A stretch of DNA of 32,000 nucleotides from Bacilli bacterium. GTDB lineage: Bacteria; Bacillota_I; Bacilli_A; RF39; UBA660. The stretch is taken from contig JBJEDW010000061.1 in assembly GCA_051872415.1 (NCBI GenBank), positions 3,986 through 35,985 of the forward strand. Direction: 5' to 3'. Position numbers and translations under genes: made by a program. The notes below the pieces were generated by a model. It made no database searches, was not told the DNA's origin, and worked only from the letters and a program-made list of their open reading frames with translations. Below are positions 800 through 23,681 of this stretch, one piece after another (within the stretch, counting starts at the first letter, position 1; each line of letters starts with the position of its first letter).

Positions 800-1771
800 T
801 CATTTATTAACTTTTTCTTGAAATACTTTGCTTACTAGATCTATACATTTTTTCTTTTGAGAATATCTTGGATGAACATATAAATTTAAAGTAATATTAA
901 CATTAGCGTGTCCTAACAATTCACTTACCGTTTTATAATCACATCCTAAAGAAATACAATTTGTTGCAAATGTATGTCTTAAAGAATGAAAATTGAAGTG
1001 TTTTATTTTTAATTCATTTAATATCTTATTAAAATATTTTCTATATGTTCTTGGCTCAATATATTTATCATTATTAGATAAAATATAGTTTTCTTTGGAT
1101 GTTTTTAAAGGCTTTAATAATTCCATAAAATCTTTATTAATAGGTATTTCTCTGTTAGCATTTTTAGTTTTTGGAGTTGTGATAATAACCTTAGAAATAT
1201 TTTTATCTTTGTCCTTAATATACACTCTTTGAATTGTCTTTGAAATTATTAATTTATTATTTTTAAAATCTATATCTTTCCATTGCAAAGCACAAAGTTC
1301 ACCAATTCTTATTCCTGAATATAAAGATATTAAAAATCCTATATTTTTTGTATTTCTATTATCTAAAACATAATTAGTGATTTTATTTTGTTCATGTTTT
1401 GTTAAAATATATATACTTTTTTCTTTATTATCTTTTGGATAATTAAATGATAATTCTATATGTTTTATTTTGCCTTCATTAATCCCTTTTTTAATACTTC
1501 CTTTTACAATAATTGTAATATCTTTAATAGTTTTTTCTGATAATCCACCTTTTTTATCCTTCCTTCCATTTTTAGACAACTCTAAAAGAAAATCTTGAAT
1601 AATCTTATGATTAATCTCTTTTAATGTGTAATTTCCTAATTTAGGAATTATATGATTAAAAATATTATTTGAATAATTTGCGTAAGTAGATTCCTTAATA
1701 TAATCTTTTTTTTCAATAAGCCACGTATAAATCCAATCCTTGTAAAGTATCTTTCTTGATTTAATAATCAT
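800..1771 (-). CDS. Tyrosine site-specific recombinase (phage-integrase family), candidate hsdS invertase
   Basis: 323 aa with the SGIRIGELCAL (Arg), HSLRHTFAT (H-x-x-R), LLGH and LYVH (Tyr) catalytic motifs. It sits between two inverted hsdS genes. Confidence 0.93.
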   Translation of the reverse strand: MIIKSRKILYKDWIYTWLIEKKDYIKESTYANYSNNIFNHIIPKLGNYTLKEINHKIIQDFLLELSKNGRKDKKGGLSEKTIKDITIIVKGSIKKGINEGKIKHIELSFNYPKDNKEKSIYILTKHEQNKITNYVLDNRNTKNIGFLISLYSGIRIGELCALQWKDIDFKNNKLIISKTIQRVYIKDKDKNISKVIITTPKTKNANREIPINKDFMELLKPLKTSKENYILSNNDKYIEPRTYRKYFNKILNELKIKHFNFHSLRHTFATNCISLGCDYKTVSELLGHANVNITLNLYVHPRYSQKKKCIDLVSKVFQEKVNK

Positions 1772-1830
1772 TTAATTCTTTCTCCTTTCCAAAGATATTA
1801 TATAGGAATAATTAATTACTACTTTTCAAG

Positions 1831-1860
1831 TATTAAACTTAAGGACTTGAAAAGTGGTGA
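1831..1860. repeat. Inverted repeat, hsdS 5' leader (right copy)
   Basis: Exact 30-nt reverse complement of 702-731, ending 4 nt before the ATG at 1865. It contains the GTGGTGA Shine-Dalgarno-like element. Confidence 0.9.
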
Positions 1861-1864
1861 TAAA

Positions 1865-2962
1865 ATGAATGTTCCTAAATTAAGATTTAAAGAATTTAAT
1901 GATGAATATATAAATCTAAAATACAAAGATGTTTTAAAAATAAAAAGTGGTAAAGATCAAAAACAAGTTGAATGCGAAAGTGGTATTTATCCAATTTTAG
2001 GAACTGGTGGACAAATAGGAAAAACAAATTCTTTCCTATATGATAAACCATCTGTTTTGATAGGACGAAAAGGGACAATCAATAAACCACAATATATGGA
2101 AACACCTTTTTGGACTGTTGACACTTTATTTTATTCCCATATATATGAACCTAATATACCTAAATATTTATTTTATTCTTTTCAAAATGTTAATTGGAAA
2201 AAATATGATGAATCAACAGGAGTTCCTAGCTTGAGTTCGTCTACTATCGAAAGTGTTGAGTGCAATATTCCATCAAAAGAAGAACAACTTAAGATAGCCG
2301 ATTTTCTATCGCTATTAGATAAAAAAATAGACCTTCAAACTAAGAAAATTGAAGACCTTAAGTTATTTAAAAAAGGACTAATTAAAGATTTTTATAATGA
2401 ATATAATTTAAGACAAATAAAAATAAAAGAAATAGGTAAAATAGTTACTGGAACTACTCCATCAAAGTCTATAAATAGTTATTGGGATAATGGTAATATT
2501 ACATGGGTAACTCCAACAGATATTAATGACAGTAGAGATATTAATGATTCATTTTTTAAAATTACTGATACAGGTTTAGATAAAGGAAAATTTATTCCTA
2601 AAAATTCAGTTTTAGTTACATGTATAGCTAGTATAGGTAAAAATGCTATTTTAAAAGTTGATGGATCATGTAATCAACAAATAAATGCAATTATACCTAA
2701 TAAAAATTTTAATTATAATTATGTATATTACTTAATTGAATCTATATCTAATTATATGAAATCTATTGCTGGAACATCTGCTACATCTATTATTAATAAA
2801 GAAGAATTTTCAAAAATAATAGTCAAAGTTCATTCAAAAGAGAAGCAGGATTATATTGCATCAGTATTGTCACAGTTTGAAATAAAAATACTATTAGAAA
2901 TTTCAAAATTAAATAAATTCTATCAATTAAAAAAAAGCCTTATGCAAAATATGTTTGTATAA
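1865..2962 (+). CDS. hsdS: Type I R-M specificity subunit HsdS (full length)
   Basis: Two target-recognition-domain halves separated by the conserved spacer SKEEQLKIADFLSLLDKKIDLQTKKIEDLKLFKKGL, with a C-terminal conserved helix LKKSLMQNMF. The track starts at TTG 1847. I prefer ATG 1865 (MNVPKLRFKEF), which parallels MKPKLRF of the other copy. Confidence 0.93.
   Translation: MNVPKLRFKEFNDEYINLKYKDVLKIKSGKDQKQVECESGIYPILGTGGQIGKTNSFLYDKPSVLIGRKGTINKPQYMETPFWTVDTLFYSHIYEPNIPKYLFYSFQNVNWKKYDESTGVPSLSSSTIESVECNIPSKEEQLKIADFLSLLDKKIDLQTKKIEDLKLFKKGLIKDFYNEYNLRQIKIKEIGKIVTGTTPSKSINSYWDNGNITWVTPTDINDSRDINDSFFKITDTGLDKGKFIPKNSVLVTCIASIGKNAILKVDGSCNQQINAIIPNKNFNYNYVYYLIESISNYMKSIAGTSATSIINKEEFSKIIVKVHSKEKQDYIASVLSQFEIKILLEISKLNKFYQLKKSLMQNMFV
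2301..2371. repeat. Inverted repeat, central hsdS spacer (right copy)
   Basis: See 197-267: 71 nt with 2 mismatches. Confidence 0.9.
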
Positions 2963-2968
2963 GGTTTT

Positions 2969-3592
2969 TTATAATCTTTCTATAATATGTAGATATTCAT
3001 CAATTGTGCTTGGAAATTTTGAATACGCTCTTCTATTATAATCAATAGATAAAATATTTAAATTTTTATATATTAGGTTTAAAATTTCATCAATATCATT
3101 ATAGGTTATTTTAAAATCTTCGTTTACTTTTCCATTATCATAAAAGTATTTTTTATCTTGATGAGCATAAACTTTATCTCTTTGAGACTTTATATTTTCT
3201 ATTTGCTTACTATATTTATTCAATTCCAATTTAAAATTATTAATATCATCTAAAACATTTACTTTTTTTACTAAAACTTTTTCTGTTATTTTTGTTTCTT
3301 CATTATAGAACTCATCAATAAATTCATTTAAAAATTGTTCTTTCTGATTTTCGCAACAGTTAATTAACTTAAATATACTTTTATCTTCCCTTTTATCTAT
3401 TAATTTTGCAATTTTCATTACAAATGAATATTTTAATGAATTTAAAACATTATATAAAAATCCATTTATTTGTTTTATCTCTTTTTCATTTCCCTGAACA
3501 TTACTTAATATACCTTTATATAATTCAAAATCACTTAATGCACTATTAACCATTTTGAAGTATTGTGAAAATTCACATTCTAATTTTATCAT
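2969..3592 (-). CDS. Hypothetical protein, HEPN-like (AbiU2-type R-x5-H motif), coupled to hsdM
   Basis: 207 aa and predicted helical. The SQRDKVYAHQD segment fits the HEPN Rx4-6H motif. Its ATG overlaps the hsdM stop by 1 nt (TAATG at 3590-3594). The functional call rests on the motif only. Confidence 0.5.
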   Translation of the reverse strand: MIKLECEFSQYFKMVNSALSDFELYKGILSNVQGNEKEIKQINGFLYNVLNSLKYSFVMKIAKLIDKREDKSIFKLINCCENQKEQFLNEFIDEFYNEETKITEKVLVKKVNVLDDINNFKLELNKYSKQIENIKSQRDKVYAHQDKKYFYDNGKVNEDFKITYNDIDEILNLIYKNLNILSIDYNRRAYSKFPSTIDEYLHIIERL

Positions 3593-5151
3593 TAAAGTTC
3601 CTCTAACCCTAGTTCTTTTAAGTAAACATTAAGTTCTTTATCTACTTCTGCTATTTGCTTATCAATATCTTTAAGATCTTGTTGAATAGCTTTAATATCT
3701 ATTTCTTCTTCCTCTTCAAATGTGTCTACATACCTAGGAATATTTAAATTATATTCATTTTCTTTTATTTCAGACATTGGAGCAACATGGCAATATTTTT
3801 CTATCTCAACTCTATTTTTATAAGTTTCAATAATTTTATCAACATCTTCATCTCTTAATCTGTTTTGATTTTTTCCAGCTTCAAATTCTTTAGAAGCATC
3901 TATAAATAAAATATTGCCTTCGTTTTCTCTGCATTTTTTAAATACTAATATACAAGTTGGAATACTTGTTCCATAAAATATATTAGCTGGTAATCCAATT
4001 ACTGCATCTAAATAGTTTTTTTCTTCAATTAAATATTTTCTAATTACTCCTTCTGACGCTCCTCTAAATAAAACACCATGAGGAAGAACTACTGCCATAG
4101 TTCCATTATCTGATAATTGGTATATCATATGTTGAATAAAAGCAAAATCTGCCTTTGATTTTGGTGCTAATTTACCATAAGCACTAAATCTTTCATCTTC
4201 TATAAACTTTGGATCAGCACTCCATTTTGCAGAATATGGAGGATTAGCAACTATTGCATCAAATTTCATATCTAAATGTCTAGGTTTTTCTAAAGTATCA
4301 TCGTTTTTAATATCAAAATGTTTAAATGAAACTCCATGTAATAACATGTTCATTCGAGCTAAGTTGTAAGTTGTAGAATTAAATTCTTGTCCATAGTATG
4401 AACTTACCTTACATTCTTTACCAACTCTTAAAAGTAACGATCCGGATCCACAAGTAGGATCATATACATTTTGAAGTTTTGATTTATTTAGCGTAACTAA
4501 TTTTGCAAGAATTCTTGATACTTGTTGTGGTGTATAAAATTCTCCAGCTTTCTTTCCAGCTGATGCAGCAAAGTTTGAAATTAAGTATTCGTATGCATCT
4601 CCTAAAACATCAATTTCCGCATCTTCATAATGAAAGTCTATATCATCTATTTTTAACATAATAGTTGAAATTAGTTTGGTTCTTTCTGCTTCGCCTCTAC
4701 CTAATTTAGAGTTGTTTAAATCCATATCTTCAAATAGATTCTCAAAATCATCTTCTGATTCATTACCTAAAGTAGATTCTGATATAACATTAACTGCTTT
4801 AGCAAGCATTGAGATATCAAATTTACCAGTTTTAATATTATCAATTAATGTACTCCATAGATATTCTGGTTCAATACAATAACCTATATTTTCTTCCTCT
4901 ATTAAATCGGACTTAAATTCTTGTGCTTGTTCTTTATCCTTGAACATGTCAGCATATTTCATTTTATTTCTTAACATTACATTTTCAACGTAATTAACTA
5001 AATTTTCAGATAAATATCTGTAGAATATTAATCCTAAGATATAATTTTTGAAATCATTAGCATCCATATTTCCTCTTAGGGAATTAGCAATACTCCAAAG
5101 TTGTTTTTGAAGTTCTGCTTGTTGTGATTGTTGTTTTTCTTCTCTTGACAT
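3592..5151 (-). CDS. hsdM: Type I R-M N6-adenine DNA methyltransferase subunit HsdM
   Basis: N-terminus has the HsdM_N pattern LWSIANSLRGNMDANDFKNYILGLIFYRYLSE. AdoMet motif DPTCGSGSLL and catalytic NPPY (IVANPPYSAKW) are present. Confidence 0.97.
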   Translation of the reverse strand: MSREEKQQSQQAELQKQLWSIANSLRGNMDANDFKNYILGLIFYRYLSENLVNYVENVMLRNKMKYADMFKDKEQAQEFKSDLIEEENIGYCIEPEYLWSTLIDNIKTGKFDISMLAKAVNVISESTLGNESEDDFENLFEDMDLNNSKLGRGEAERTKLISTIMLKIDDIDFHYEDAEIDVLGDAYEYLISNFAASAGKKAGEFYTPQQVSRILAKLVTLNKSKLQNVYDPTCGSGSLLLRVGKECKVSSYYGQEFNSTTYNLARMNMLLHGVSFKHFDIKNDDTLEKPRHLDMKFDAIVANPPYSAKWSADPKFIEDERFSAYGKLAPKSKADFAFIQHMIYQLSDNGTMAVVLPHGVLFRGASEGVIRKYLIEEKNYLDAVIGLPANIFYGTSIPTCILVFKKCRENEGNILFIDASKEFEAGKNQNRLRDEDVDKIIETYKNRVEIEKYCHVAPMSEIKENEYNLNIPRYVDTFEEEEEIDIKAIQQDLKDIDKQIAEVDKELNVYLKELGLEEL

Positions 5152-5160
5152 AATATCCTC

Positions 5161-7920
5161 CTATAAAAATTTCTTAAATATATTTTTTATAAATTCTTTT
5201 ACTTTATTTTTCACAATTCTTCTTTCCCAATAATCATCTATATCTATTGCTTCATTTATTTCTTTATCTGGAAAAATACTGCTATATTCATATTCATTAA
5301 TTATTTCATTTAATTTATCTAAATTAATTTTATTATTTAAAGCAAATTTTTTAATTTCTTTTTCTCTTTCTTTATTCATATGGTCATTGAAAGCAGCATC
5401 TATTGAATCAGCTTCTTTTAGTGCAGGTAATATAGATTTTAAGAAGCTCTTAATTAAATCAGCTTTTAAGAATAATTCATCATCTGTAATATTTGTTAAT
5501 TTACTTTCAATATCTGCAATATCACGTTTCTTTTGGTCTTCGTTTGTTAAATCAACATTTCTAATTAAATTAAGTATATATGAAACATTAATTCTATCAG
5601 TTTGAATTAATTCTAGCGAGAATGTAACATCATTTAAAATTGAACTTTTTTCTTTATCATTAGAAATTTTTCTGTATAACTCATAATATTTACTTCTATA
5701 ATCTTCAAACATTTGAGTATTAATAACATCATCAGCATTATCTAAATCAAATTGATTAAATGTTTTTAAGCTAACAAGTATTTTAGCAACATCTCTAAAT
5801 GCTAAAATAAACTCTTTTATATCTTCTTCTCTTTCTAGTTCATCAACACTATCAACAGTCGGAGTAATGCTTAGCAACTTATCTACAGCTTTATTAAATT
5901 TATCTAAATAAACAGGATATGGTGCCATTATTACAGTATCAATACTATCAGTTTGAGAGAATAATTTAACAGCTTCATCTACTCTAGCTTTAGTGGTTCT
6001 ATAACAAACTATATTCCCAAATGGTTTTGTTTCAGATTCAACTCTATTTGTTCTTGAAAATGCCTGAATTAAATCATGATATTTAAGTGGTTTATCAACA
6101 TATAAAGTATTTAATCTTTTAGCATCAAATCCAGTTAATAACATATTAACAACTATAACTATATCAATTTCTGTATTTTTTATTCTTTTGCATATATCTC
6201 TAAAATAACCATCAAAATTATGAGTAGAGAAATTTGTGTTGAATATTTTGTTATAATCTTCCATATATCTATCTAATACTTCTCTTGAATGTTCTGGATT
6301 TTTATCTAAATCTTCATTTGCTCCGCAAGTAAATATTGCTCCTATTTTTAAATCATGATTTATCTTTTTAAAAGCATCGTAATATTTTATTAGTAATGGT
6401 ATTGAAGATACAGTAAATAATGCATTATATTTTCTATCTCTTGTTTTAATATTATGATGATCAATAATGTGTTGAGCAATTAAGCCTACTCTTTCATATG
6501 CTAAGAATACTTCATCTGTATCTATCCCTTCCACCATAATGTCTTCTTCTAACGCAACTGTATTTGCTTCCATAAACTTTATATAGTCAACATTAAATCC
6601 TAATACATTTTCATCTTTAATAGCATCTTTTATTAAGTATGTATGTAAGCATTTTTCGAATATATCAGCAGTACTTCTACCATCTTGTGATGGATTTTCT
6701 TTAAATCTAGGAGTGCCAGTAAATCCAAAGTATTGCGCTTTACTAAATGTTTTAGAAATCTGTTTATGCATATCACCAAATTGTGATCTATGACATTCAT
6801 CTATTATGAATACTGTTTTTAAATCTTTATATTTTTCCATAATATGTGCATATTTAGGATTAGTACAAGCATTAGCCATTTTTTGAATTGTAGTTATAAT
6901 TAATTGCTTAGAACTATCTTTAATCTGCTCTATTAATTTATCAGTTTGATTAGTCATGTCAACGCAACCTGGGTCAAATTTATTAAATTCATCTAATGTT
7001 TGTTTATCCAAGTCCTTTCTATCTACTAAAAAGAATACTTGATTGATAGAAGGTTCTAAAGAAAGAATTTGGCTTGTTTTAAAAGAAGTAATTGTTTTAC
7101 CAGAACCAGTTGTATGCCATACATAACCATTATTACTTGTATCTAATGCACGAGATACAATATTTTCAACTGCATATACTTGATAAGGTCTCATTACCAT
7201 CAATGTTTTTTCTGTTTCATTAACAATCATATATCTTGCTATCATTTTTCCTATATGACACCTGTCTAAGAAAAACACACAAAATTGTTCTAAGTTATTA
7301 ATTCTATCATTATTTATATCAGTCCAATAAAAAGTAAATCCATAATTTAACTCTTGATCTCCATTTGCAAAATATTTAGTTTCTACTCCATTACTTATTA
7401 CAAATAATTGAATAAATTTATATAAGCCTTGATATGAATGCCTTTTATATCTCTTAATTTGATTAAAGGCTTCTTTCATATCAATACCTCTACGCTTTAA
7501 TTCAACTTGAACCAAAGGTAATCCATTTATTAAAATAGTTACATCATATCTATTTGTATATTTTCCTTCGACAGTAGTTTGATGAGTTACTTGAAATATA
7601 TTCTTACACCAATCTTTTGTATTAAATAATTCAATATAAACAATACTTCCATCATCTCTTTGAATATCCTGTTTTTGCCTTAATTCTTTTGCCGATTGAA
7701 AAACACCTTTACCAGATATTTTAACCATTAATCTTTCAAATTCTTTATCACTTAAATTTTTACCTTTAAGTTCTATTTTGTTATGAATATTGACTTGTTC
7801 TCTAAAATTTTGTTCTAATTCATTAACATCATTTATTACTACTTTAGAATACCCTTGCTTTGCAAGTTGATCTATCATACGATCTTCTAATCTTGCTTCA
7901 CTTTCATATACTCCCATCAT
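5161..7920 (-). CDS. hsdR: Type I restriction endonuclease subunit HsdR
   Basis: Has Walker A TTGSGKT, DEAH-box IIDECHRSQ, helicase C motifs (QAFSRTNR) and a long C-terminal helical domain. The track starts at TTG 7932. ATG 7920 or 7917 lies behind GGTAGGTG and is the more likely start. Confidence 0.96.
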   Translation of the reverse strand: MMGVYESEARLEDRMIDQLAKQGYSKVVINDVNELEQNFREQVNIHNKIELKGKNLSDKEFERLMVKISGKGVFQSAKELRQKQDIQRDDGSIVYIELFNTKDWCKNIFQVTHQTTVEGKYTNRYDVTILINGLPLVQVELKRRGIDMKEAFNQIKRYKRHSYQGLYKFIQLFVISNGVETKYFANGDQELNYGFTFYWTDINNDRINNLEQFCVFFLDRCHIGKMIARYMIVNETEKTLMVMRPYQVYAVENIVSRALDTSNNGYVWHTTGSGKTITSFKTSQILSLEPSINQVFFLVDRKDLDKQTLDEFNKFDPGCVDMTNQTDKLIEQIKDSSKQLIITTIQKMANACTNPKYAHIMEKYKDLKTVFIIDECHRSQFGDMHKQISKTFSKAQYFGFTGTPRFKENPSQDGRSTADIFEKCLHTYLIKDAIKDENVLGFNVDYIKFMEANTVALEEDIMVEGIDTDEVFLAYERVGLIAQHIIDHHNIKTRDRKYNALFTVSSIPLLIKYYDAFKKINHDLKIGAIFTCGANEDLDKNPEHSREVLDRYMEDYNKIFNTNFSTHNFDGYFRDICKRIKNTEIDIVIVVNMLLTGFDAKRLNTLYVDKPLKYHDLIQAFSRTNRVESETKPFGNIVCYRTTKARVDEAVKLFSQTDSIDTVIMAPYPVYLDKFNKAVDKLLSITPTVDSVDELEREEDIKEFILAFRDVAKILVSLKTFNQFDLDNADDVINTQMFEDYRSKYYELYRKISNDKEKSSILNDVTFSLELIQTDRINVSYILNLIRNVDLTNEDQKKRDIADIESKLTNITDDELFLKADLIKSFLKSILPALKEADSIDAAFNDHMNKEREKEIKKFALNNKINLDKLNEIINEYEYSSIFPDKEINEAIDIDDYWERRIVKNKVKEFIKNIFKKFL

Positions 7921-7947
7921 TACACCTACCAATCAATTTATATTTCA

Positions 7948-8141: not shown

Positions 8142-9152
8142 TTAATCTGAGTTTACATTATAATTTTTTTCAATGATTTTTTTAAAATATAAATATACAG
8201 ATTTCAATAGTCCATTATTATTATAATACTCTTTATGACGAATTATTCTTCCAAAAAACAATTCATTAATGTCTTCTTTTACATTTTCCTTAATACCCTT
8301 GCTAGTTACTATTTCATTAAACATATATAACGCATAAGTCATTTGCCTTATTCTGGAATTACTCAATTTATTGTTTCTTGTTTCTTTACCTACTCCACAT
8401 TCTCTTAAATAATTAATAACTAATGTATCCGCTCTATGTAGATTATCTTTTTTATCTAGTTCTGATAAAACGCAAGAATTATGAGCTACTGCATTTCTAA
8501 GTTTTACTACTTCTCTTAAAATAAATATGTTTTTAAGTTCATTCTCTAAATTATATTCTTTAGAAAAAAATTCATAAAAATTAACTAATTCACCAAATGT
8601 AATTATTTCAAGAAATTCCCATACAGGAATATTTTCTAATTGTTGATTCTTATCTATATCGTATTTAGAAAAAATTTTTTTATAATATTCACTTCCTACT
8701 TTTTTAAAAATACTATTATGCACTTTTTTAGGAAACTTTTTATCATTGAAATCTCTTTCTAAATACATGTTAACAGATTTATAGCCATTTTCTTCTTCTA
8801 TGTTTTCAATTAAATTTAATATTCTTATTTTTAAATAATGTTCAATATCAATAATTATTTTAAAGAATAATAGTCTAACTCTATGATCTATAATAGCCAT
8901 ATCTTTAAGATAAGCAAAATCTAAATCTTGATATAATCCTTCATATTCACCTGCTGGAGATGGATATTTCAAAAAATTATTTTTATATGAGGTTAAGTTA
9001 TAATAGTTATTGTTATTTCTTAAATACTCTTCTGCATCCTTTTCACTAATTTTTTCAAACTTAATATTTTTTCTTTTTAAATACGGAACTAATTCGTTAA
9101 TTTTCATCATAGGTCTCAACTCTGATATTTTTTCATCTGTTTCAATCATCAT
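8142..9152 (-). CDS. Abi_2 family (AbiD/AbiF-like) abortive-infection protein
   Basis: 336 aa. The N-terminal pattern LKRKNIKF..EKDAEEYLRNNNNYYNLTSYKNNF and the DLDFAYLKDMAIIDHRVRLLFFKIIIDIEHYLKIRI core match what I recall of Abi_2 family proteins. Confidence 0.75.
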   Translation of the reverse strand: MMIETDEKISELRPMMKINELVPYLKRKNIKFEKISEKDAEEYLRNNNNYYNLTSYKNNFLKYPSPAGEYEGLYQDLDFAYLKDMAIIDHRVRLLFFKIIIDIEHYLKIRILNLIENIEEENGYKSVNMYLERDFNDKKFPKKVHNSIFKKVGSEYYKKIFSKYDIDKNQQLENIPVWEFLEIITFGELVNFYEFFSKEYNLENELKNIFILREVVKLRNAVAHNSCVLSELDKKDNLHRADTLVINYLRECGVGKETRNNKLSNSRIRQMTYALYMFNEIVTSKGIKENVKEDINELFFGRIIRHKEYYNNNGLLKSVYLYFKKIIEKNYNVNSD

Positions 9153-13817: not shown

Positions 13818-14864
13818 TTATGATATGCAATTTTGATTATTGTATGAAGATTTAAATTTCATTTTATTAAAACATTTGTTTTTGAAATGATAACTATCCG
13901 CATATTTAATATGTCCAAGAAAAGATGCAATACTCATTTCAACTTTTGTAATATCTAAATTTTCTTGCTCGTATAAATTATTCCATGTTTTTATTTTCTT
14001 TATAATGGTTTTTTTGTTTCTTTTTCTTAATAGTACATAATCTTCATGGATTATGTATCCACAAAAATCACAACCTTTTTTAGAAGGATAATATTTACTT
14101 TTTTTATTTAATTCTAGTTTTAAGGTTTCTATTAAAAACTTTTCTATTTTTTTTAGAACTTCTTTAGCAGTTTTTTTATCTTTTACTAAAATAACAAAAT
14201 CATCCATATATCTACAGTAGCACTTTATTCTTAAACCAAATTTTATGTAGTGATCAAGTTCGTTTAAATAAATATTAGCAAAGTACTGACTTGTGTAATT
14301 GCCGATTGGTATTCCTTTTTCGTTAAAGTCTCCGATTATTGTTTTTGTAAGCTTTAAAAATTTTTTGTCTTTAAAGTTTTTCTTCAAAATGTTATATAAG
14401 GTTTCTCTATCAATGCTGAAAAAATACTTTTTAATATCAAGCTTTATTATATAATAATCACCATATTCTTTTCTCATACATCTCATATAGTGTTTTATCT
14501 TTTGGTATGATTTGTGAGTTCCTCTTCCTATTATACAAGCATAAGTGTCATTTATGAACTTAGGAACCATGTATGGTTTTAAAAATTCTTCTACATACCA
14601 CTGATGAATAACTCTATCTTTGATCGGAAGTGCTTTTATTAATCTTTCTTTTGGTTCATAAATTGTAAATTCTCTATATTTTGAAGGTGTGTAAGTTAAA
14701 TTTAAGAGTTCATCATATATAGATACTAAATTACTTTCTAAGTTTTGTTCAAAGTTTATTATTTCTTTTTTATTTATTTTACCGTCACGAGCTCTATAGA
14801 AAGCATTATATAAATTAGTAAACTCAAGTTTTTCGTCATACTTTACTTTAATCTTTTTTGGCAT
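13818..14864 (-). CDS. DGR reverse transcriptase
   Basis: 348 aa. It has the RT motif 4 variant PIGNYTSQYFANIYL (the IGxxxSQ form typical of DGR RTs) and motif 5 YCRYMDDFVIL (YMDD). It has no maturase or endonuclease extension. Confidence 0.93.
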   Translation of the reverse strand: MPKKIKVKYDEKLEFTNLYNAFYRARDGKINKKEIINFEQNLESNLVSIYDELLNLTYTPSKYREFTIYEPKERLIKALPIKDRVIHQWYVEEFLKPYMVPKFINDTYACIIGRGTHKSYQKIKHYMRCMRKEYGDYYIIKLDIKKYFFSIDRETLYNILKKNFKDKKFLKLTKTIIGDFNEKGIPIGNYTSQYFANIYLNELDHYIKFGLRIKCYCRYMDDFVILVKDKKTAKEVLKKIEKFLIETLKLELNKKSKYYPSKKGCDFCGYIIHEDYVLLRKRNKKTIIKKIKTWNNLYEQENLDITKVEMSIASFLGHIKYADSYHFKNKCFNKMKFKSSYNNQNCIS

Positions 14865-15208
14865 AGTCCTATCCAGTTATCTAAGTTTTTATCTACTGCA
14901 TTTATTTTTCTTGACCAAGCTTCGTAATTTTTAATGGAAATATATTTTTCTTTATACGATACTCTTATATAAAAAGAAATAACTTTTATATTTGATGAAA
15001 TTTCTTTTAGGTAACCTAATTTGAGGTTTATTTTGGTTTCGTTGTAAGCATAAATCAGATATTTATATCCTTTTTCTAATATTTTTCTAATATCACTGCA
15101 TAAAACATCACGTTCATATTTTGGAAATTTTTTCATTATGTTATATGAATAATAAAATAAATCTATATATCTATTGTAAATAATGGACTTTTCAAATTCT
15201 TTATTCAT
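14843..15208 (-). CDS. avd: Avd-like accessory variability determinant (four-helix-bundle protein)
   Basis: 121 aa and basic. The MKKFPKYERDVLCSDIR pattern resembles the 23S-rRNA-IVS/Avd family. It overlaps the RT start by 22 nt and the upstream ORF by 4 nt. Confidence 0.8.
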   Translation of the reverse strand: MNKEFEKSIIYNRYIDLFYYSYNIMKKFPKYERDVLCSDIRKILEKGYKYLIYAYNETKINLKLGYLKEISSNIKVISFYIRVSYKEKYISIKNYEAWSRKINAVDKNLDNWIGLCQKRLK

Positions 15209-15555
15209 AGTTTTTCTTTTAACCTTCCGATTATATTAAGGGCTTCTAGTGGGGTTAAGTTATTGATATCTACCTTTTCTAAAATTTTAATTATAGAATC
15301 TTTATCACTTTCTTTTACTATTTCATATTTTATTTTATTTTCTTTAAACATTTCTTGGTATTTTTTTATGGATTTAACAGGAAAACCACATTTTTTTATT
15401 TCATTATTGAAATTGCTTAATTTAAATTCAAATTTTTTATTTAGGAAAATAGCATCTTCAGCGAGCGCTATGTAGAATATTCCACTTTTAAATAAATATA
15501 TTATTTTTTCATTATTTCTTTTTAATTTTAAATATTTTTCGTATGTTTTACTCAT
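15205..15555 (-). CDS. MutS domain-I-like mini-protein (DGR accessory candidate)
   Basis: 116 aa. YEKYLKLKRNNEKIIYLFKSGIFYIALAEDAIFLNKKF...CGFPVKSIKKYQEMFKENKIKYEIVKE parallels the MutS mismatch-binding domain (QYL.LK...P..ILFFR.GDFYELF..DA...GIP.......Y...L...G..VAI.EQ). The C-terminal LTPLEALNIIGRLKEKL parallels the MutS C-terminal helix-turn-helix. RBS is AAAGGAG. Confidence 0.65.
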   Translation of the reverse strand: MSKTYEKYLKLKRNNEKIIYLFKSGIFYIALAEDAIFLNKKFEFKLSNFNNEIKKCGFPVKSIKKYQEMFKENKIKYEIVKESDKDSIIKILEKVDINNLTPLEALNIIGRLKEKL

Positions 15556-15619
15556 GTTTTTACTCCTTTTACTTTTTTTATCCAGCGCAACTAAAGCGAA
15601 AACTTGTTAATACTAAAAT

Positions 15620-15651
15620 AATGCTAAAGAGAATAAATTCTCTATAGCATT
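15620..15651 (-). other. 15-bp imperfect hairpin in the TR-to-msl spacer
   Basis: aatgctaaagagaat-aa-attctctatagcatt, with one mismatch. Confidence 0.4.
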
Positions 15652-15807
15652 ATCTGTAGTTTCTAACTTTCACATATTGTTACTAGCTCTAAACTATCGT
15701 TTTTTATTTTTTTCTTGCACTTGCAAGAAAGGTAAAAGCTCTTTACTAAATTAGCTTTGTATTTAATCCTTGAACTAAATCTCTCACCATATTATTTAGT
15801 AATCCAA

Positions 15808-15938
15808 AGGGCACCAGGACAACCACGCGAGCCGAGTTGTTACTGTTGGCATTACCGTTGTTGTTGTTCGAGTTCATCACGCCTGCGTTAGCCCCATTGT
15901 TGTAGTTACCGCCACGTATGAACCAAGGGTTCGAAGCA
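15808..15938 (-). repeat. DGR template repeat (TR)
   Basis: 131 nt homologous to 16196-16326. On the coding strand it is rich in AAC/AAT codons (14 of them). The 72-aa track ORF here (15746-15964) is just the TR read in the VR frame. Confidence 0.92.
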
Positions 15939-16173
15939 GAACGAGACACTTTACAAACTTTCACCTATCTTAACAAATGTTAAGACCATATTCCTTGCCA
16001 CTTCTTGCGAAGCGGAAGGCAATCGGGACCCTGGCGGGAAAAGCCCGCTTGCCTTGTGCTTTATTATATTATATTGTATCACTATTTTCGCCTGATTTTA
16101 GTAAACTAAAATCTAGGAAAAATAGTGTTATTGTTGTTTGCCTTGCAAAAATTGGACAGTCGTCCGAAAGGGG

Positions 16174-16193
16174 CATAGTCCTAACGGACTATG
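16174..16193 (-). promoter_or_regulatory. Perfect 8-bp stem / 4-nt loop hairpin immediately 3' of the VR and stop codon
   Basis: catagtcc-taac-ggactatg, abutting the TAG stop (16194-16196). It is in the position of the hairpin/cruciform that guides DGR target recognition. Confidence 0.6.
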
Positions 16194-18287
16194 CTAGGGC
16201 ACAAGGACAACCACGCGAGCCGAGAGGAAACCGTCGGCATCACCAGGGTAGTAGTCCGAGCTCATCACGCCAGCGCTAGCCCCAGAGTCGCAGCCACCGC
16301 CACGTCCGAACCAAGGGCGCGGAGCAAATGCTACATATCCATAATCCGAATACCAACCTGCCCCCGATGTTGCTGTTACTTCTTTTACTGCATCTCCTAA
16401 TTTACTTCTTTTCTTTTGGGTAATACTTGTTCCAAAACTATATTTATCTAAGTATTTATTTTCTGGATAAGCTATTCCTGTATAACTTGTATATGTTACA
16501 CTTTCATATAGAATTCCAGTGTATCCTGAGTGATATCCTACATAATCTCCTGTGTTACTATATCCTGCCATCATTGTTGTTCCATCATTTGATACTATGT
16601 TACCCATTACATATTCCCAAGCACCACCTGACATATCATATATTCCATAGATATTTCCTGTTGTTGATGCAACTTTACTCATATCTTTTGTCGAACTTTT
16701 GGTATTTGTATTGTAATTTAATAAGTATCCATCATAGGTATAGAAACCATAACTATTATACGTAGTAGTTGATGTTTGATCAGTATATGTACCATTTATC
16801 GGTGTTTGTCCTCCGACATTTCCTCCGCTTCTTCCTGTATAGTATGAAGAACTATTATTTATATTTATTTCTTTATTTATTCCATATTTTGAGTGTGATA
16901 GGTATGCTACTGCTCCCCATTCTTGGTTTTTCATCATATGAGTATCATCTGTAGATGCAAATCCATATTTGTTGCCACTATCATTCATTGCCATTATGTT
17001 AGTTTCAAACGAACTTACTTTTTGACTTCTTAAACTTTGTACATCTGGTTTTATTGTTATATCGCTTATTGTTCCTGTTGTTTCAAATTTTCCTACCCAC
17101 ATTCCTTCTAGTTCTTGAGATCCAAATGTAAAGGCTGGATGATTATATGTTTTACCATTACAAGTACTATCTGTACATGTAGCATTTGTACTTTTTAATT
17201 TACAGGTTTCAGATGGATCTCCATCTGTTCCTGATATACTATCAGTACATGATATTTCTCCAGTTGTTTCTGTTCCATTTTCAAAAGTTATTTCTATTTC
17301 TTGAGGTTCACTTGTTACTGTTCCATCAGCATTATAATTCCATACTTTATACTTATATCTTGGTATCCATACTTGCATTGTTAAAATATCATCCATTGGT
17401 ATTGTTGTACCTGGACTTGCATTTTTATATGTACTTCTATTGGTTTCACTTACTGTTACACTATTTGCCCACATCTTATCGTTATAATCATACCATTTGT
17501 ATGTTTTGCTATTATTTGTACTATCTGCTTTTTTCCATACCTCTGCATCTTCATCATAATATACTGCAATCATATTACTTGTTAATACTGGTACATTTGC
17601 CCCACTTATATCTAAGTTATCCCTTGTTTTTACTCCTACTTTAAATTTATATTGATATTTTTTTACTGTCTGTGTATTTTCATCATAGAATTTACTTGCT
17701 TCTACTTTACTATCTAACCATACTCTTAATTTAAACTTCTTACTTATCTCTCTTGTTGTTCCATCATGTGTGTTTGTATCTGCATATATCATCTTTTCAC
17801 TATTTAAATCACTTATTTTTGTCGGATTTAACAAAACGTTCCCTTCATAATCTGTTAGATATACTTTTACTTCATCATCTGTTAATGCTGTCATATTTGT
17901 ATCTACACTTAATTTTTCTAAATATACTCCATATGTTATATCTATTGGTTTACTTGTTGTTGTTTTAACTGAAAAATCAAATGTTTCACTTTGGTTTTTT
18001 CCATCTGTATCACTTATTGGAAGAGCATTTTCTATACTTATTATATTGCTGTTGCTTTCTAAAAACTCTAGTGATACATCTCCTGTATTTATTGTATTTG
18101 CACTTCCTATAAAACCATAATTCCACACAGCAAAACTTATGCCCACAGAAAGCATAAGTAATATTACAAGTAATAGAATTGTTATTATTTTCCTCTTATT
18201 ATCGCCTTTTTCTATAGAGGTTTTAGTTAAATTTGCCCCCCCCCCCCCAGACGAACATTTGTTTTGTTTTTTAGATAGTTTTTTCAT
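16194..18287 (-). CDS. DGR target protein: N-terminal membrane anchor, beta-rich ectodomain, C-terminal C-type-lectin/FGE-sulfatase-like domain carrying the VR
   Basis: 697 aa. The KRKIITILLLVILLMLSVGISFAVW segment is a TM helix. GIYDMSGGAWEYVMGN resembles the FGE/CLec motif GxYDMxGNxWEW. The C-terminal PWFGRGGG...ARVVV is typical of DGR VR scaffolds. Confidence 0.9.
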   Translation of the reverse strand: MKKLSKKQNKCSSGGGGANLTKTSIEKGDNKRKIITILLLVILLMLSVGISFAVWNYGFIGSANTINTGDVSLEFLESNSNIISIENALPISDTDGKNQSETFDFSVKTTTSKPIDITYGVYLEKLSVDTNMTALTDDEVKVYLTDYEGNVLLNPTKISDLNSEKMIYADTNTHDGTTREISKKFKLRVWLDSKVEASKFYDENTQTVKKYQYKFKVGVKTRDNLDISGANVPVLTSNMIAVYYDEDAEVWKKADSTNNSKTYKWYDYNDKMWANSVTVSETNRSTYKNASPGTTIPMDDILTMQVWIPRYKYKVWNYNADGTVTSEPQEIEITFENGTETTGEISCTDSISGTDGDPSETCKLKSTNATCTDSTCNGKTYNHPAFTFGSQELEGMWVGKFETTGTISDITIKPDVQSLRSQKVSSFETNIMAMNDSGNKYGFASTDDTHMMKNQEWGAVAYLSHSKYGINKEININNSSSYYTGRSGGNVGGQTPINGTYTDQTSTTTYNSYGFYTYDGYLLNYNTNTKSSTKDMSKVASTTGNIYGIYDMSGGAWEYVMGNIVSNDGTTMMAGYSNTGDYVGYHSGYTGILYESVTYTSYTGIAYPENKYLDKYSFGTSITQKKRSKLGDAVKEVTATSGAGWYSDYGYVAFAPRPWFGRGGGCDSGASAGVMSSDYYPGDADGFLSARVVVLVP
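16196..16326 (-). repeat. DGR variable repeat (VR), including the A-free 3' IMH-like block (16196-16223)
   Basis: Aligns without gaps to the TR. I count 24 substitutions at TR adenines. The A-free block TCGGCTCGCGTGGTTGTCCT is identical in both. Confidence 0.92.
18236..18248 (-). repeat. Homopolymeric G13 tract (C13 on the + strand) in codons 13-17 of the DGR target gene
   Basis: Read directly as gCCCCCCCCCCCCCag, encoding SGGGGA. The gene is in frame at this length. Confidence 0.95.
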
Positions 18288-18508: not shown

Positions 18509-19404
18509 TTAGTATTGTAATACATTTAAATGTTTTAGTATGTTAGTAAGGATTGTTTTGTCTTCAATTAAGTTTATTGCGAAGCATTTTTTTCCTAGAT
18601 CTTTGAATGATGTCTTTGAATGATGAACCACAGTGATATAGAAGCTTTTTGTCTATAATTATAAATCTATCATGAAAAGCATTGCTAGTGAGTGCTGTTA
18701 TGTTGTGGTACTGACTATTATATTTTTAATCAACTCTTTGTTTAAATTTTTACTGTATACTTTTATTGGAACCTGGATGTTTCTTAATAAATCAAATAGC
18801 TTTTTTCCTGCGTAATTATCTATGATTATTATTTCTTCTTTGGCTTTTGATAATATATCAATCATTAGAGAGTAAGCATCGTATATTTGTCCTTCGAAGA
18901 AGATGTGATTATTTATTTTGTTATTATCTAGTTTTTTGAATATGATATCAAATTTATTATCGTGATCTATTATTTTTGTTTCTATATTAGATAATCTGTT
19001 ACTATAATTATTTGTTGCTATATATTTTTTCATTTCTACGAATGCATCCATTATTTTTATACTTATTTCTTCTGCTACAGGTGTTCTTAATATTGAACTT
19101 AGCATCGCTACTCCTTGCTCTTAAACACATATGTTCTATTATATTTTCTTCCACGAGTTTCTACAGTATTTTTTTTGGTTTCAGATTAAAACCAAAAAAT
19201 TTTTGATTCTTCTTCTGTTAATCTAAACATAAATCTTTCTGGGAATCTATTGATATGTCTTTTTACTGCCAAGTTTATAGATTTTGTCCCATTTTTACAA
19301 CCATAAAGCATAGCTAGGTCAGAATCAAGCATTACTTGTTTGCCTCTGATTTTATATATTAGATCTTCTATTTTTATATTATCTTTTGTTATTATTTCGT
19401 TCAT
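18509..19404 (-). pseudogene. ORF6N/KilA-N-type DNA-binding protein gene, decayed by at least four lesions
   Basis: The track fragments at 19186-19404 and 18698-19105 are pieces of one gene. After ...RFPERFMFRLTEEESKIFWF comes an in-frame TAA, followed by a frameshift before EQGVAMLSSILRTP. A further frameshift precedes AFHDRFIIIDKKLLYHCGSSFKD. A 13-nt tandem duplication (18600-18625) then breaks ...SFKDLGKKCFAINLIEDK.... Confidence 0.8.
18600..18625. repeat. 13-nt perfect tandem duplication (tctttgaatgatg x2)
   Basis: Read directly. Removing one copy restores the ORF6N C-terminal frame. Confidence 0.9.
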
Positions 19405-19535
19405 AAGAATTCACCACTTTCGATATAAGCTAAATTTATTAATTTGTCTAATTAAGTTTATCAAAATAATATATTTGATATTTTTTTATTATTTAGATGA
19501 TTTAAACTTATAAATAAAAGAACTCTTCTATTTTT

Positions 19536-20384
19536 TTAGATGAGCTCTTCTATTTCTTCTTTAGAAAGACCAGTACATTCAGATATTGTACTTATATTCA
19601 TACCTTTATTAAGCATATTTTTTGCTATTTCATACTTTTCATTAGTTGAACCTTGTTCATAACCTTGACTCATTCCAACTTCAATTCCTTGTTCATATCC
19701 TTCTTTAATTAGAGTATTATGTACCATTTCTGCGTCTTTTTCTTTCGAGACTACCTCTATAAACTCTGGATCTTCATTTAGTTTTTCTATCTTTTCTTTG
19801 TACTTTTCCATCATTCTATCTCCTTTGCATACCACATCTAAATCTTTTGGCTCTAAATCTAACATTAAAAAATATTTATACTCTAGAGCCTTTTTCTTAT
19901 CTCCATGATACCACATATTCATTATTTTATCCATGTTTATTTCTATTATTTTAAGTTTATCACAGTAACATTTATTGTTATCTTTATCATACATCACGTA
20001 ACAAGACTTGATATCTTTTTCTATTCCTAGTCCCCATGTTATATTAAGCTGAATATGCATTTTAGTATCTAAATAGTCGTCACCTTTAAACACACTATTT
20101 GAAAAAACTGATGAGATATAAGCAAAGTTTCTTATAGGAAGAGAATTGTAATATCCATTGTTTATTTCTAAGTTAATAGTTTCAGTTTTTGTTTTAACAA
20201 GGACATCTAGTGTTTTAGTCTTTATTTTAATATTTGGTTTTTCAAGTTCTTTTGGATCAAGTACTAGTTCTTCAATACTTAAATCTAAGGTCTTTTCTAA
20301 AAAATATTTAAGCAAATCTTTTTGAGATTCACATCCAATAGCATTTTTAAATCCAGCATCGTATCTTGCGGTGTAAAAAGCCAT
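19536..20384 (-). CDS. Rpn-family recombination-promoting nuclease / PD-(D/E)XK putative transposase
   Basis: YDAGFKNAIG...DLLKYFLEKTL...LDVLVKTKTETINLEINN forms the nuclease core. C-terminal repeats EGYEQGIEVGMSQGYEQG are followed by the IAKNMLNKGMNISTISECTGLSKEEIEEL helix-turn-helix. I chose the start at ATG 20384, behind GGAGGTG. Confidence 0.85.
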   Translation of the reverse strand: MAFYTARYDAGFKNAIGCESQKDLLKYFLEKTLDLSIEELVLDPKELEKPNIKIKTKTLDVLVKTKTETINLEINNGYYNSLPIRNFAYISSVFSNSVFKGDDYLDTKMHIQLNITWGLGIEKDIKSCYVMYDKDNNKCYCDKLKIIEINMDKIMNMWYHGDKKKALEYKYFLMLDLEPKDLDVVCKGDRMMEKYKEKIEKLNEDPEFIEVVSKEKDAEMVHNTLIKEGYEQGIEVGMSQGYEQGSTNEKYEIAKNMLNKGMNISTISECTGLSKEEIEELI

Positions 20385-20489
20385 TTTATTCACCTCCAAA
20401 AGCACTATAAACTAAATAAAATAAGATGTAAAATGACCATTTAGAAGATTTGATCAAAAGAAAAAGATGAAACATAAATATTGGTATAA

Positions 20490-23325: not shown

Positions 23326-23545
23326 ATCTCCTTTTGTTTTTTATAAAAAAAGCCTTCATCCAAAGGACGAAGAGCTCGTGGTACCACCTTATTTTATAAT
23401 ATTTCTATTATCTTATTTGGCTATAACGTTTGCCTTACGGATTATCTTACTTGGTTTCGGATAATCTGCTAAAAAAGCTACCTTCAACTATCTTTATTAT
23501 CTATTTACACCATACATAGACTCTCTTTAAATATTAATAGTTTAC
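23326..23545 (-). promoter_or_regulatory. T-box riboswitch leader of valS, with terminator at 23345-23376
   Basis: The minus strand has AAAGAGAG, a distal-loop-like GGUGUAA and a GAAA-capped stem III. The T-box sequence AAUAAGGUGGUACCACGAG (23377-23395) follows. The terminator is CUUCGUCC-UUU-GGAUGAAG plus U7. Confidence 0.85.
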
Positions 23546-23564
23546 TCCTCTTTTTTTCTTGCTT

Positions 23565-23681
23565 TTAATATAATTTTGATATGTTTACTATTTCTCCAGC
23601 GACTAGGAATATTACCATTAGAATAACGAATGCTAAGATTAGAAAAGCCATTAGTCCCCAGCCATGATTGTTTAATTTCAT
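23565..23681 (-). CDS. Candidate 38-aa hydrophobic small protein (not in the ORF track)
   Basis: MKLNNHGWGLMAFLILAFVILMVIFLVAGEIVNISKLY. The ATG lies 4 nt after the GAGGTG embedded in the trxB stop region. It has one predicted TM helix. Confidence 0.4.
   Translation of the reverse strand: MKLNNHGWGLMAFLILAFVILMVIFLVAGEIVNISKLY

Follow-up and report, generated by a model that had tools for sequence, protein, structure and literature searches.

Background

Tens of thousands of diversity-generating retroelements (DGRs) have been catalogued. Among them, a MutS-like protein (MSL) of 112-283 aa is one of four classes of accessory protein and always occurs with avd, in a layout called 'Architecture D' (Wu et al. 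2018, PMC5758913). Msl is listed in three Bacteroides DGRs, and in Bacteroides ovatus the deletion of host mutS raises mutagenesis of the variable repeat (VR) 5- to 10-fold in an all-or-nothing fashion (Macadangdang et al., bioRxiv 10.1101/2024.11.15.621889). In this study we analysed a 32-kb stretch of DNA from a Bacilli bacterium (contig JBJEDW010000061.1; hereafter the window, ~28% GC), in which positions 13818-18287 very probably hold a chromosomal DGR of the MSL+Avd class, by which a gut-type Bacilli bacterium varies the ligand-binding face at the C-terminus of a surface protein.

The RNA of such elements has been described for the Bordetella DGR, in which a template:primer duplex stands beside a 'cPRT Stop' duplex that joins sequences upstream and downstream of the template repeat (TR) and is followed by a stem-loop and adenosines making A-minor contacts; these elements are predicted in 207 of 278 Avd-type DGRs, Bacillota included (Handa et al.). 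The RNA motif RT-14 was published as one of 19 motifs near reverse transcriptase (RT) genes with no role assigned, and RT-10 alone was assigned to a DGR (Weinberg et al. 2017, PMC5737381).

The locus is a genuine and apparently intact DGR, and it belongs to an already described class, that with an MSL helper, rather than to a new kind of system. It shares with the Architecture D DGRs (Wu et al. 2018, PMC5758913) and those of Bacteroides (bioRxiv 10.1101/2024.11.15.621889) a small MutS-like protein accompanied by Avd and a DGR RT, a cellular context and a VR at the C-terminus of the target, and it differs from them in its AT-rich Bacilli host and in a target that has one N-terminal hydrophobic segment and is not a type V pilus tip or a lipoprotein. 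With the DGR of Bordetella phage BPP-1 (mtd-avd-TR-brt) it has in common full-length RT homology, Avd, the adenine footprint, an A-free end of the initiation of mutagenic homing (IMH) type and a hairpin after the VR, as well as an RNA duplex across the TR, an adjacent stem-loop with adenosines and a neighbouring TR-proximal helix. Unlike the BPP-1 element, the DGR of the window is chromosomal, carries an additional MSL gene and has a target that is not a tail fibre; its avd lies downstream of the TR and the upstream strand of the duplex is non-coding, whereas in BPP-1 that strand lies in avd, and the RNA downstream of the TR is RT-14, not RT-10. As a DGR the locus adds little, the MSL+Avd class and the RNA mechanism being already published, and its value is that of a compact, 4.5-kb, one-strand and intact example from an uncultured AT-rich Bacilli lineage.

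Results and discussion

Layout of the element and the adenine footprint

A preliminary description of this DNA had proposed a complete DGR with all of its parts on one strand within 4.5 kb, and each element that it listed was recovered on the minus strand at the place given to it. The order on that strand is the target gene with the VR, a hairpin, a 257-nt spacer, the TR, a structured RNA, MSL, avd and the RT gene. Every sizeable open reading frame (ORF) in 13818-18287 lies on the minus strand, and the four ORFs (target, MSL, avd and RT) are intact and full length, with translationally coupled overlaps. We regard the '+'-strand ORFs at 15977-16279 and 16191-16400 and a 72-aa ORF over the TR (15746-15964) as by-products of the GC-rich, stop-poor TR/VR sequence.

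Repeat finding gave one outstanding pair, ungapped and 79% identical, formed by the 131-nt segments 15808-15938 and 16196-16326 (minus strand), as the preliminary description had placed them. On the coding strand the two copies differ at 28 positions, and the expected adenine bias is evident: 24 of the 28 fall at adenines of the copy at 15808-15938 and none at adenines of the other (hypergeometric P = 1.6e-14). Because the mismatches fall on the adenines of 15808-15938, this copy is the template and 16196-16326 is the variable copy. The VR comprises the last 43 codons of the 697-aa target and ends at its stop codon. The TR holds 34 adenines, carried by 12 AAC, two AAT and five other A-containing codons, and 32 of the 34 occupy codon position 1 or 2. 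No TR codon can reach a stop by adenine mutation, and the computed repertoire is ~7e18 peptides from 3e20 DNA sequences. The VR peptide reads APRPWFGRGGGCDSGASAGVMSSDYYPGDADGFLSARVVVLVP, against ASNPWFIRGGNYNNGANAGVMNSNNNNGNANSNNSARVVVLVP encoded by the TR.

The VR ends in an A-free, GC-rich segment of 28 nt (16196-16223, minus strand), which in the alignment differs from its TR counterpart (15808-15835) at a single position, T against G. By analogy with the Bordetella DGR, these two ends would act as IMH and IMH*. The window holds no VR copy beyond the one described, and additional VRs were rejected. Outside the window, exact-protein look-ups of the target and of one paralog returned no further copy of the locus, a metagenome scan with a pattern spanning the TR/RT-14 junction gave no match, and a scan with the 3' segment shared by TR and VR gave only two unrelated 56%-GC contigs sharing 22 nt. 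These metagenome contigs (L081:5607-5626 and L082:712-731) match the A-free TR/VR 3' end, TCGGCTCGCGTGGTTGTCCT, exactly over the 22 nt, and neither RT nor Avd nor MSL was detected on them; the match may be due to chance or to a conserved ...SARVVV-coding end of other CLec (C-type lectin) targets.

Reverse transcriptase and Avd

The RT gene (13818-14864, minus strand) encodes 348 aa with the motifs IPIGNYTSQ and YMDD, in agreement with the preliminary description, and matches RVT_1 with E = 2.7e-20. On that description the enzyme should group with DGR RTs rather than with those of retrons or group II introns. Its closest solved relative is the Bordetella phage DGR RT (bRT, 8ub7; E = 8e-41 over residues 9-326), while group II intron RTs follow at E = 4.6e-20 and retron-type RTs are weaker still. 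IPIGNYTSQ aligns with IPIGSLTSQ of bRT, in the DGR-type pattern [I/L/V]GxxxSQ that replaces the QG of other RTs. The protein also matches phrog_1423 (E = 3e-114) and has more than 4300 homologs at ~55% identity. Best match and motif assign it as a probable DGR RT.

The Avd-like ORF that had been noted as overlapping the RT gene does so by 22 nt. It lies at 14843-15208 (minus strand) and encodes 121 aa with an isoelectric point of 9.6. The product matches bAvd PF22296 with 58.3 bits against a cut-off of 40 (E = 1.3e-15) and phrog_3206, 'Avd protein of DGR', with E = 1.4e-18; the score for NCBIfam NF033474, 58.3 bits, is under that model's cut-off of 80.

The MutS-like protein and its relatives

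The MSL gene (15205-15555, minus strand; 116 aa) has a stop codon that overlaps the avd start (ATGA). Its product matches MutS_I PF01624 with 43.9 bits against a cut-off of 20.6 (E = 3.3e-11), and it consists of MutS domain I and a short C-terminal helical segment resembling the C-terminal oligomerisation domain of MutS, with the ATPase absent. In a comparison of the family profile with E. coli MutS, residues 13-96 (domain I) are matched with E = 1e-7 and residues 818-852 (the C-terminal oligomerisation helices) weakly, with a conditional E = 7e-5. An alignment of 36 family members shows L21, F22, S24, G25, F27, D34, K55, C56, F58 and P59 to be invariant. Of the mismatch-binding motif of MutS, GDFYE (Phe-X-Glu), MSL keeps the Phe (F27) and has Ile in place of the Glu. 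Being small, MutS-homologous and next to avd, the protein fits the published definition of MSL.

We scanned GTDB representative genomes with the MSL alignment and studied 80 loci of the 100 relatives returned. Nearly all come from gut metagenome-assembled genomes (MAGs) labelled Clostridia or Bacilli, and in most of the 80 loci MSL is followed by avd and by an RT ~50% identical to that of the window; 40 of the 80 have an adenine-biased TR/VR pair of their own. The preliminary description had recognised a MutS-like gene here and called it extra; the gene is present, but it is a known accessory, conserved beside avd and RT in dozens of genomes of gut Clostridia and Bacilli. Five loci (L002, L003, L005, L006 and L011) share the same-strand order target-TR-MSL-avd-RT, and in many other MSL loci the unit of target and TR lies downstream of the RT gene on the opposite strand.

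Some of the relatives have particular arrangements. In the closest full relative, L002 (2536-4415), a group II intron (Rfam group-II-D1D4-6, 135 bits; Intron_gpII) breaks up the RT gene, whose match falls into two parts, residues 1-228 and 223-327. In L003, two tandem copies of target and TR (196-1644 and 3984-5432), with two VRs and two TRs, stand upstream of one MSL-avd-RT module, and in each VR/TR pair 16 of 16 mismatches are at adenines. MSL homologs with no RT or avd found within up to 6 kb were seen in L009, L012, L014, L030, L053, L056, L066, L071, L074, L075, L076 and L079; these are ORFs of 96-167 aa, mostly 130-167, adjoining ordinary-looking chromosomal genes, some of which resemble aminoacyl-tRNA synthetases, truB and recG by eye.

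The locus offers a convenient test case for the role of MSL. With domain I only and a probable oligomerisation tail, MSL would be suited to bind a heteroduplex and to keep MutS off it. We tentatively suggest, while holding it to be rather doubtful, that MSL is a DGR-encoded anti-mismatch-repair factor: a domain-I 'mini-MutS' that keeps the stacking Phe, has lost the catalytic-signalling Glu, retains an oligomerisation helix and lacks the clamp and ATPase could coat the mismatched cDNA:VR heteroduplex and block its all-or-nothing reversal by host MutS, and standalone MSL could do likewise in trans or modulate mismatch repair generally.

The target protein

The target gene (16194-18287, minus strand) encodes 697 aa, with a basic N-terminal segment, one hydrophobic segment (~residues 34-56), a long region described as extracellular and a C-terminal domain of predicted FGE/CLec type that ends in the VR. 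Hydropathy shows a single Kyte-Doolittle peak at residues 30-60, and the hydrophobic segment may anchor the protein in the membrane or be a signal, either uncleaved or of the SipW type. The protein is identical to the NCBI entry 'MAG: hypothetical protein ACI31R_04220 [Bacilli bacterium]', and its family, very large with more than 6400 members, consists of uncharacterised surface proteins; the precomputed Pfam column is empty for all 120 members listed. Throughout the family the scaffold PWF.RGG...AGV...SAR.V is kept, and variation occurs at Asn-coded positions.

Pfam FGE-sulfatase PF03781 scores 18.5 bits against a cut-off of 23.3, the 26 of 69 relatives that it matches being sub-threshold too, and a profile of the close family finds only TaqVP in the PDB, at a non-significant E = 0.87. 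A more diverse profile was built from the VR-bearing targets of related DGR loci, which are 20-45% identical and of which two carry the classical GNVWEWT motif. This profile matches TaqVP 5vf4, the DGR variable protein of Thermus aquaticus with a CLec fold, with E = 4.6e-5, followed by PvdO (2.4e-4), pFGE (4.2e-4) and several FGEs. These results support a place for the target C-terminus in the FGE/CLec superfamily, as judged from profile homology. Similar to CLec/FGE variable proteins such as TaqVP (5VF4) and the class of Treponema TvpA, the domain shows homology over the motifs H.MKN.EWGAVAYL and G(I/V)YD(M/L)SG..WE(Y/W) and over the C-terminal VR scaffold RGG...AG...(F/A)R.V; it differs from them in its large insertions and in a Pfam FGE-sulfatase score below cut-off.

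Homologs of the target were also seen outside the window. A homolog 74% identical (P0205, L084:6001-8700) lies between fpg and an xerC-like recombinase and murE, with neither a TR copy nor an RT found within 6 kb and again with a small hairpin overlapping the stop codon. Two readings fit it: a remote target acted on in trans, or a member of the family that undergoes no diversification. The MAG of the window itself (prefix ACI31R) holds at least two target paralogs, P0214 and P0276 (70% and 68% identical), whose VR-like C-termini have differing ends, SARLVVSSD and STRVVVAP, and these may belong to other DGRs or be old targets.

RNA around the template repeat

The preliminary description had placed about 250 nt of structured spacer after the TR. 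Structured it is, but it is not anonymous: 144 nt of it are an RT-14 RNA (Rfam RF02921; 15656-15799, minus strand), followed by a terminator-like hairpin. The RNA starts eight bases past the TR and matches model positions 1-144 in full, with 51.2 bits against a gathering score of 48.1, a small margin. In the minimum free energy (MFE) fold it comprises an outer helix, P1 (15804-15794 with 15751-15741), a linker whose segment 15741-15730 we call the 3' box, a stem-loop (15729-15712), an A-run (15711-15699) and a 3' hairpin (15698-15656), all on the minus strand. The terminator-like hairpin and a following UUUUAGU (15618-15653, minus strand) lie between the TR RNA and the ribosome-binding site of MSL (dG -11.0 kcal/mol and z = -7.4 as a DNA fold), and this hairpin is a putative terminator. 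RT-14 stands directly 3' of the TR also in L002, L008 and L020, even in cases in which TR and RT gene are on opposite strands.

When the sequences preceding the TRs were aligned, a conserved box emerged directly 5' of the TR. Most loci have it as AGGGATTAAACTG, and the window has AGGTGAAAGTTTG. This 5' box (AGGUGAAAGUUU; 15955-15966, minus strand) is complementary to the RT-14 linker, which the Rfam model marks as unpaired, and would form the upstream strand of a long-range helix enclosing the TR. To assess this 12-bp helix we used an anchored alignment of 28 distinct loci and 500 shuffles. In the 28 loci 96.1% of cells are paired, compared with 73.1% in the shuffles, and none of the 500 shuffles reaches the observed value. 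Both sides have changed in nine of the 12 pairs, and there are 65 doubly changed cells where 16 are expected; in slid registers pairing is only 32-62%. The boxes were located by a search for complementarity, which somewhat inflates the pairing, but the conserved positions and compensatory changes are independent of that search. Taken locus by locus, the helix often scores no higher than shuffles can, and it is its conserved position and the covariation among loci that support it.

The unconstrained MFE fold of a 504-nt region also pairs 15966-15955 with 15741-15730. In the same fold, the helix 15804-15794 : 15751-15741 lies one nucleotide from the long-range helix, and the stem-loop 15729-15712 and the A-run are present. 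An alternative partner of the 5' box, 15607-15594 (14 bp with four G-U pairs), is preferred by the ungapped search in the window; we rejected it because the 3' box is positionally homologous and is the one chosen by the MFE fold. RNAduplex over wide windows gave over-extended, uninformative helices and was replaced by the ungapped-helix search with shuffle controls.

The long-range helix matches, on these predictions, the cPRT Stop duplex of the Bordetella DGR RNA, and the RNA features around the TR confirm the known mechanism and reveal no new one. What is gained is annotation. RT-14 was published as a motif near RT genes without a function; here it is matched in full length and above the gathering score, and it immediately follows the TRs of DGRs. 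The linker that its model leaves unpaired forms a covarying helix, over a long range, with the box that precedes the TR. In this clade RT-14 can be interpreted as the downstream (Sp-type) half of the RNA of the DGR, which gives this Rfam family a functional reading.

The VR-adjacent hairpin and the spacer

The hairpin that had been reported between target and spacer lies directly 3' of the VR (16173-16194, minus strand). It has the sequence GCATAGTCC-GTTA-GGACTATGC, with a 9-bp stem and a 4-nt loop, and starts in the stop codon. As DNA it folds with dG -9.4 kcal/mol (z = -7.7), and none of 200 shuffles is as good. Hairpins with 4-nt loops stand at the same position in L002, L003, L011 and L038, with differing stem sequences.

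The spacer between VR and TR is GC-rich as the preliminary description had it (40%, compared with 28% for the window), but its folding as a whole is unexceptional (z = -1.9). It contains a long AT-rich hairpin (16080-16127, minus strand), an inverted repeat with 26-nt arms that are 81% complementary, and after it an extended -10-like sequence, TGATACAAT. This sequence might be a promoter, a reading at which the consensus scan placed no site, and in the AT-rich hairpin region the target transcript may end, the TR transcript may begin, or both. The GC-rich segment of the spacer (15993-16059, minus strand) has two predicted hairpins, and in relatives its place is taken by a strong hairpin with unrelated sequence. 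Just 5' of the 5' box is a small hairpin, GGTCTTAAC-ATTT-GTTAAGAT (15967-15987, minus strand), which is present in the MFE fold; its sequence is kept in L002 and its form in L003 and L011.

Proposed mechanism

By analogy with Bordetella, the first step would be the synthesis of an RNA that includes the 5' box, the TR and RT-14. Fold and covariation support the next step: the 5' box and the RT-14 linker pair, so that the TR becomes a closed loop, and the stem-loop and A-run beside the helix of 5' and 3' boxes complete an element of the cPRT-Stop type. One nucleotide away in the fold, P1 joins the strand 15751-15741 to the bases that immediately follow the TR; this strand is probably the cis-primer, and cDNA synthesis would, as in Bordetella, terminate at the long-range helix. 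RT-Avd would copy the TR into cDNA and misincorporate opposite its 34 adenines, consistent with the 24 A-site changes observed in the VR. The cDNA would replace the VR, guided, again on the Bordetella model, by the A-free IMH end and the adjacent hairpin. The most plausible substrate of MSL would be the heavily mismatched heteroduplex of cDNA and VR, which it could, for instance, shield from host MutS. What the sequence supports in this scheme is the adenine footprint, the identities of the components, the conserved RNA helices and the conserved synteny.

Alternative explanations

Several observations weigh against an MSL+Avd-class DGR that diversifies the binding face of a surface protein. 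Four TR/VR differences are not at adenines (T5>C, T21>G, C82>T and G124>T), and G124>T lies in the A-free 28-nt 3' end; they could be drift since the last retrohoming event. A consensus promoter scan found no consensus promoter for the TR RNA, and the look-ups and metagenome scans found no second copy of the DGR locus for VR comparison. For the target, the CLec/FGE character claimed in the preliminary description holds at the level of profile homology (TaqVP and FGE-family matches) but not yet as a fold: AlphaFold2 models of residues 225-697 (69 sequences) and 375-697 (120 sequences) have a mean predicted local distance difference test score (pLDDT) of 48.8 and 42.3, the C-terminal domain is below 50, and the alignments are shallow because the available homologs are all at least 52% identical. 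As for MSL, ~12 of the 80 homologs have no RT nearby, and the family may therefore not be specific to DGRs; in these genomes it is not exclusively linked in cis to DGRs, and it may have roles outside them. Its role in the DGR we infer, purely as a hypothesis. The non-adenine differences, one of them in the IMH region, the undetected promoter and the second copy not found in metagenome scans would also fit a decayed or dormant DGR, which was once active and no longer diversifies its target. We consider this unlikely, since the four ORFs are full length with coupled overlaps and the RNA elements are intact and above the Rfam threshold. A single mismatch between IMH and IMH* is usual in DGRs, and changes at bases other than A are reported from all over the DGR tree (Wu et al. 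2018, PMC5758913).

Two further explanations concern the origin of the element. A DGR borne by a phage or mobile element and diversifying a receptor-binding protein would be in keeping with the split ORF6N-domain gene (a type often associated with phages) and the PDDEXK_2 nuclease just upstream (18698-20405), and with the integrase and Abi genes elsewhere in the window. We think this very improbable: capsid, tail, terminase and portal genes were not found in the 32 kb, the str operon and valS stand on either side of the cassette, and the integrase adjoins the inverted hsdS of a type I restriction-modification locus, not the DGR. The target has an N-terminal membrane or signal segment, and its family of more than 6400 proteins occurs in Bacilli-type genomes, with some copies in plain chromosomal contexts, while MSL has only one partial match in 2.9 million viral contigs. 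The cellular setting without adjacent phage genes, as first described, is thus borne out. To the idea that there is no DGR here, the RT being that of a retron, group II intron or defence system and the 131-nt repeat an ordinary duplication, we give almost no credence. The top NCBIfam match of the RT is indeed a group II RT/maturase model (E = 1.5e-34), and Drt3a and retron models also match, but all score far below their cut-offs and no NCBIfam model passes. In contrast, among solved relatives bRT leads by 21 orders of magnitude, the Rfam scan found no group II intron RNA and no retron msr/msd in the window, the mismatches are adenine-specific and Avd is present; the Rfam scan, the search for structural relatives of the RT and the adenine bias together refute a group II intron or retron origin. 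We therefore retain the chromosomal MSL+Avd-class DGR as the reading of the locus.

Genomic context

The DGR is flanked by rpsL-rpsG-fusA-tuf on one side and by valS, trxB, lgt and uvrA on the other. Between the DGR and valS lie a split ORF6N-domain gene (18698-19404), which is divided into two ORFs of 72 and 135 aa and is probably a pseudogene, and after it a PDDEXK_2 (Rpn-like) nuclease/transposase gene (19536-20405); these are the sole mobile-element-like genes touching the DGR. The T-box leader upstream of valS (23360-23568, 114 bits) is ordinary and confirms a regulatory context of the Bacillota type. The host had been described as a Mollicutes-like Firmicute, and its AT-rich base composition agrees with this, but its genetic code does not: in a codon check of the window TGA is a stop and Trp is encoded by TGG in all 78 cases. 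The host thus uses the standard code, and code 4 (Mollicutes-type) is rejected.

Beside the str operon the window holds what resembles a small defence island. A type I restriction-modification locus (800-7932) includes hsdR (5161-7932) and hsdM (3592-5151), with an AbiU2-type HEPN gene (2969-3592) inserted after hsdM, and an Abi_2 (abortive-infection-like) gene (8142-9152) lies between this locus and tuf. The hsdS gene (1847-2962) is on the strand opposite to hsdR and hsdM and adjoins a tyrosine recombinase gene (800-1771), an arrangement of inverted hsdS and recombinase that recalls phase-variable, shuffling hsdS systems.

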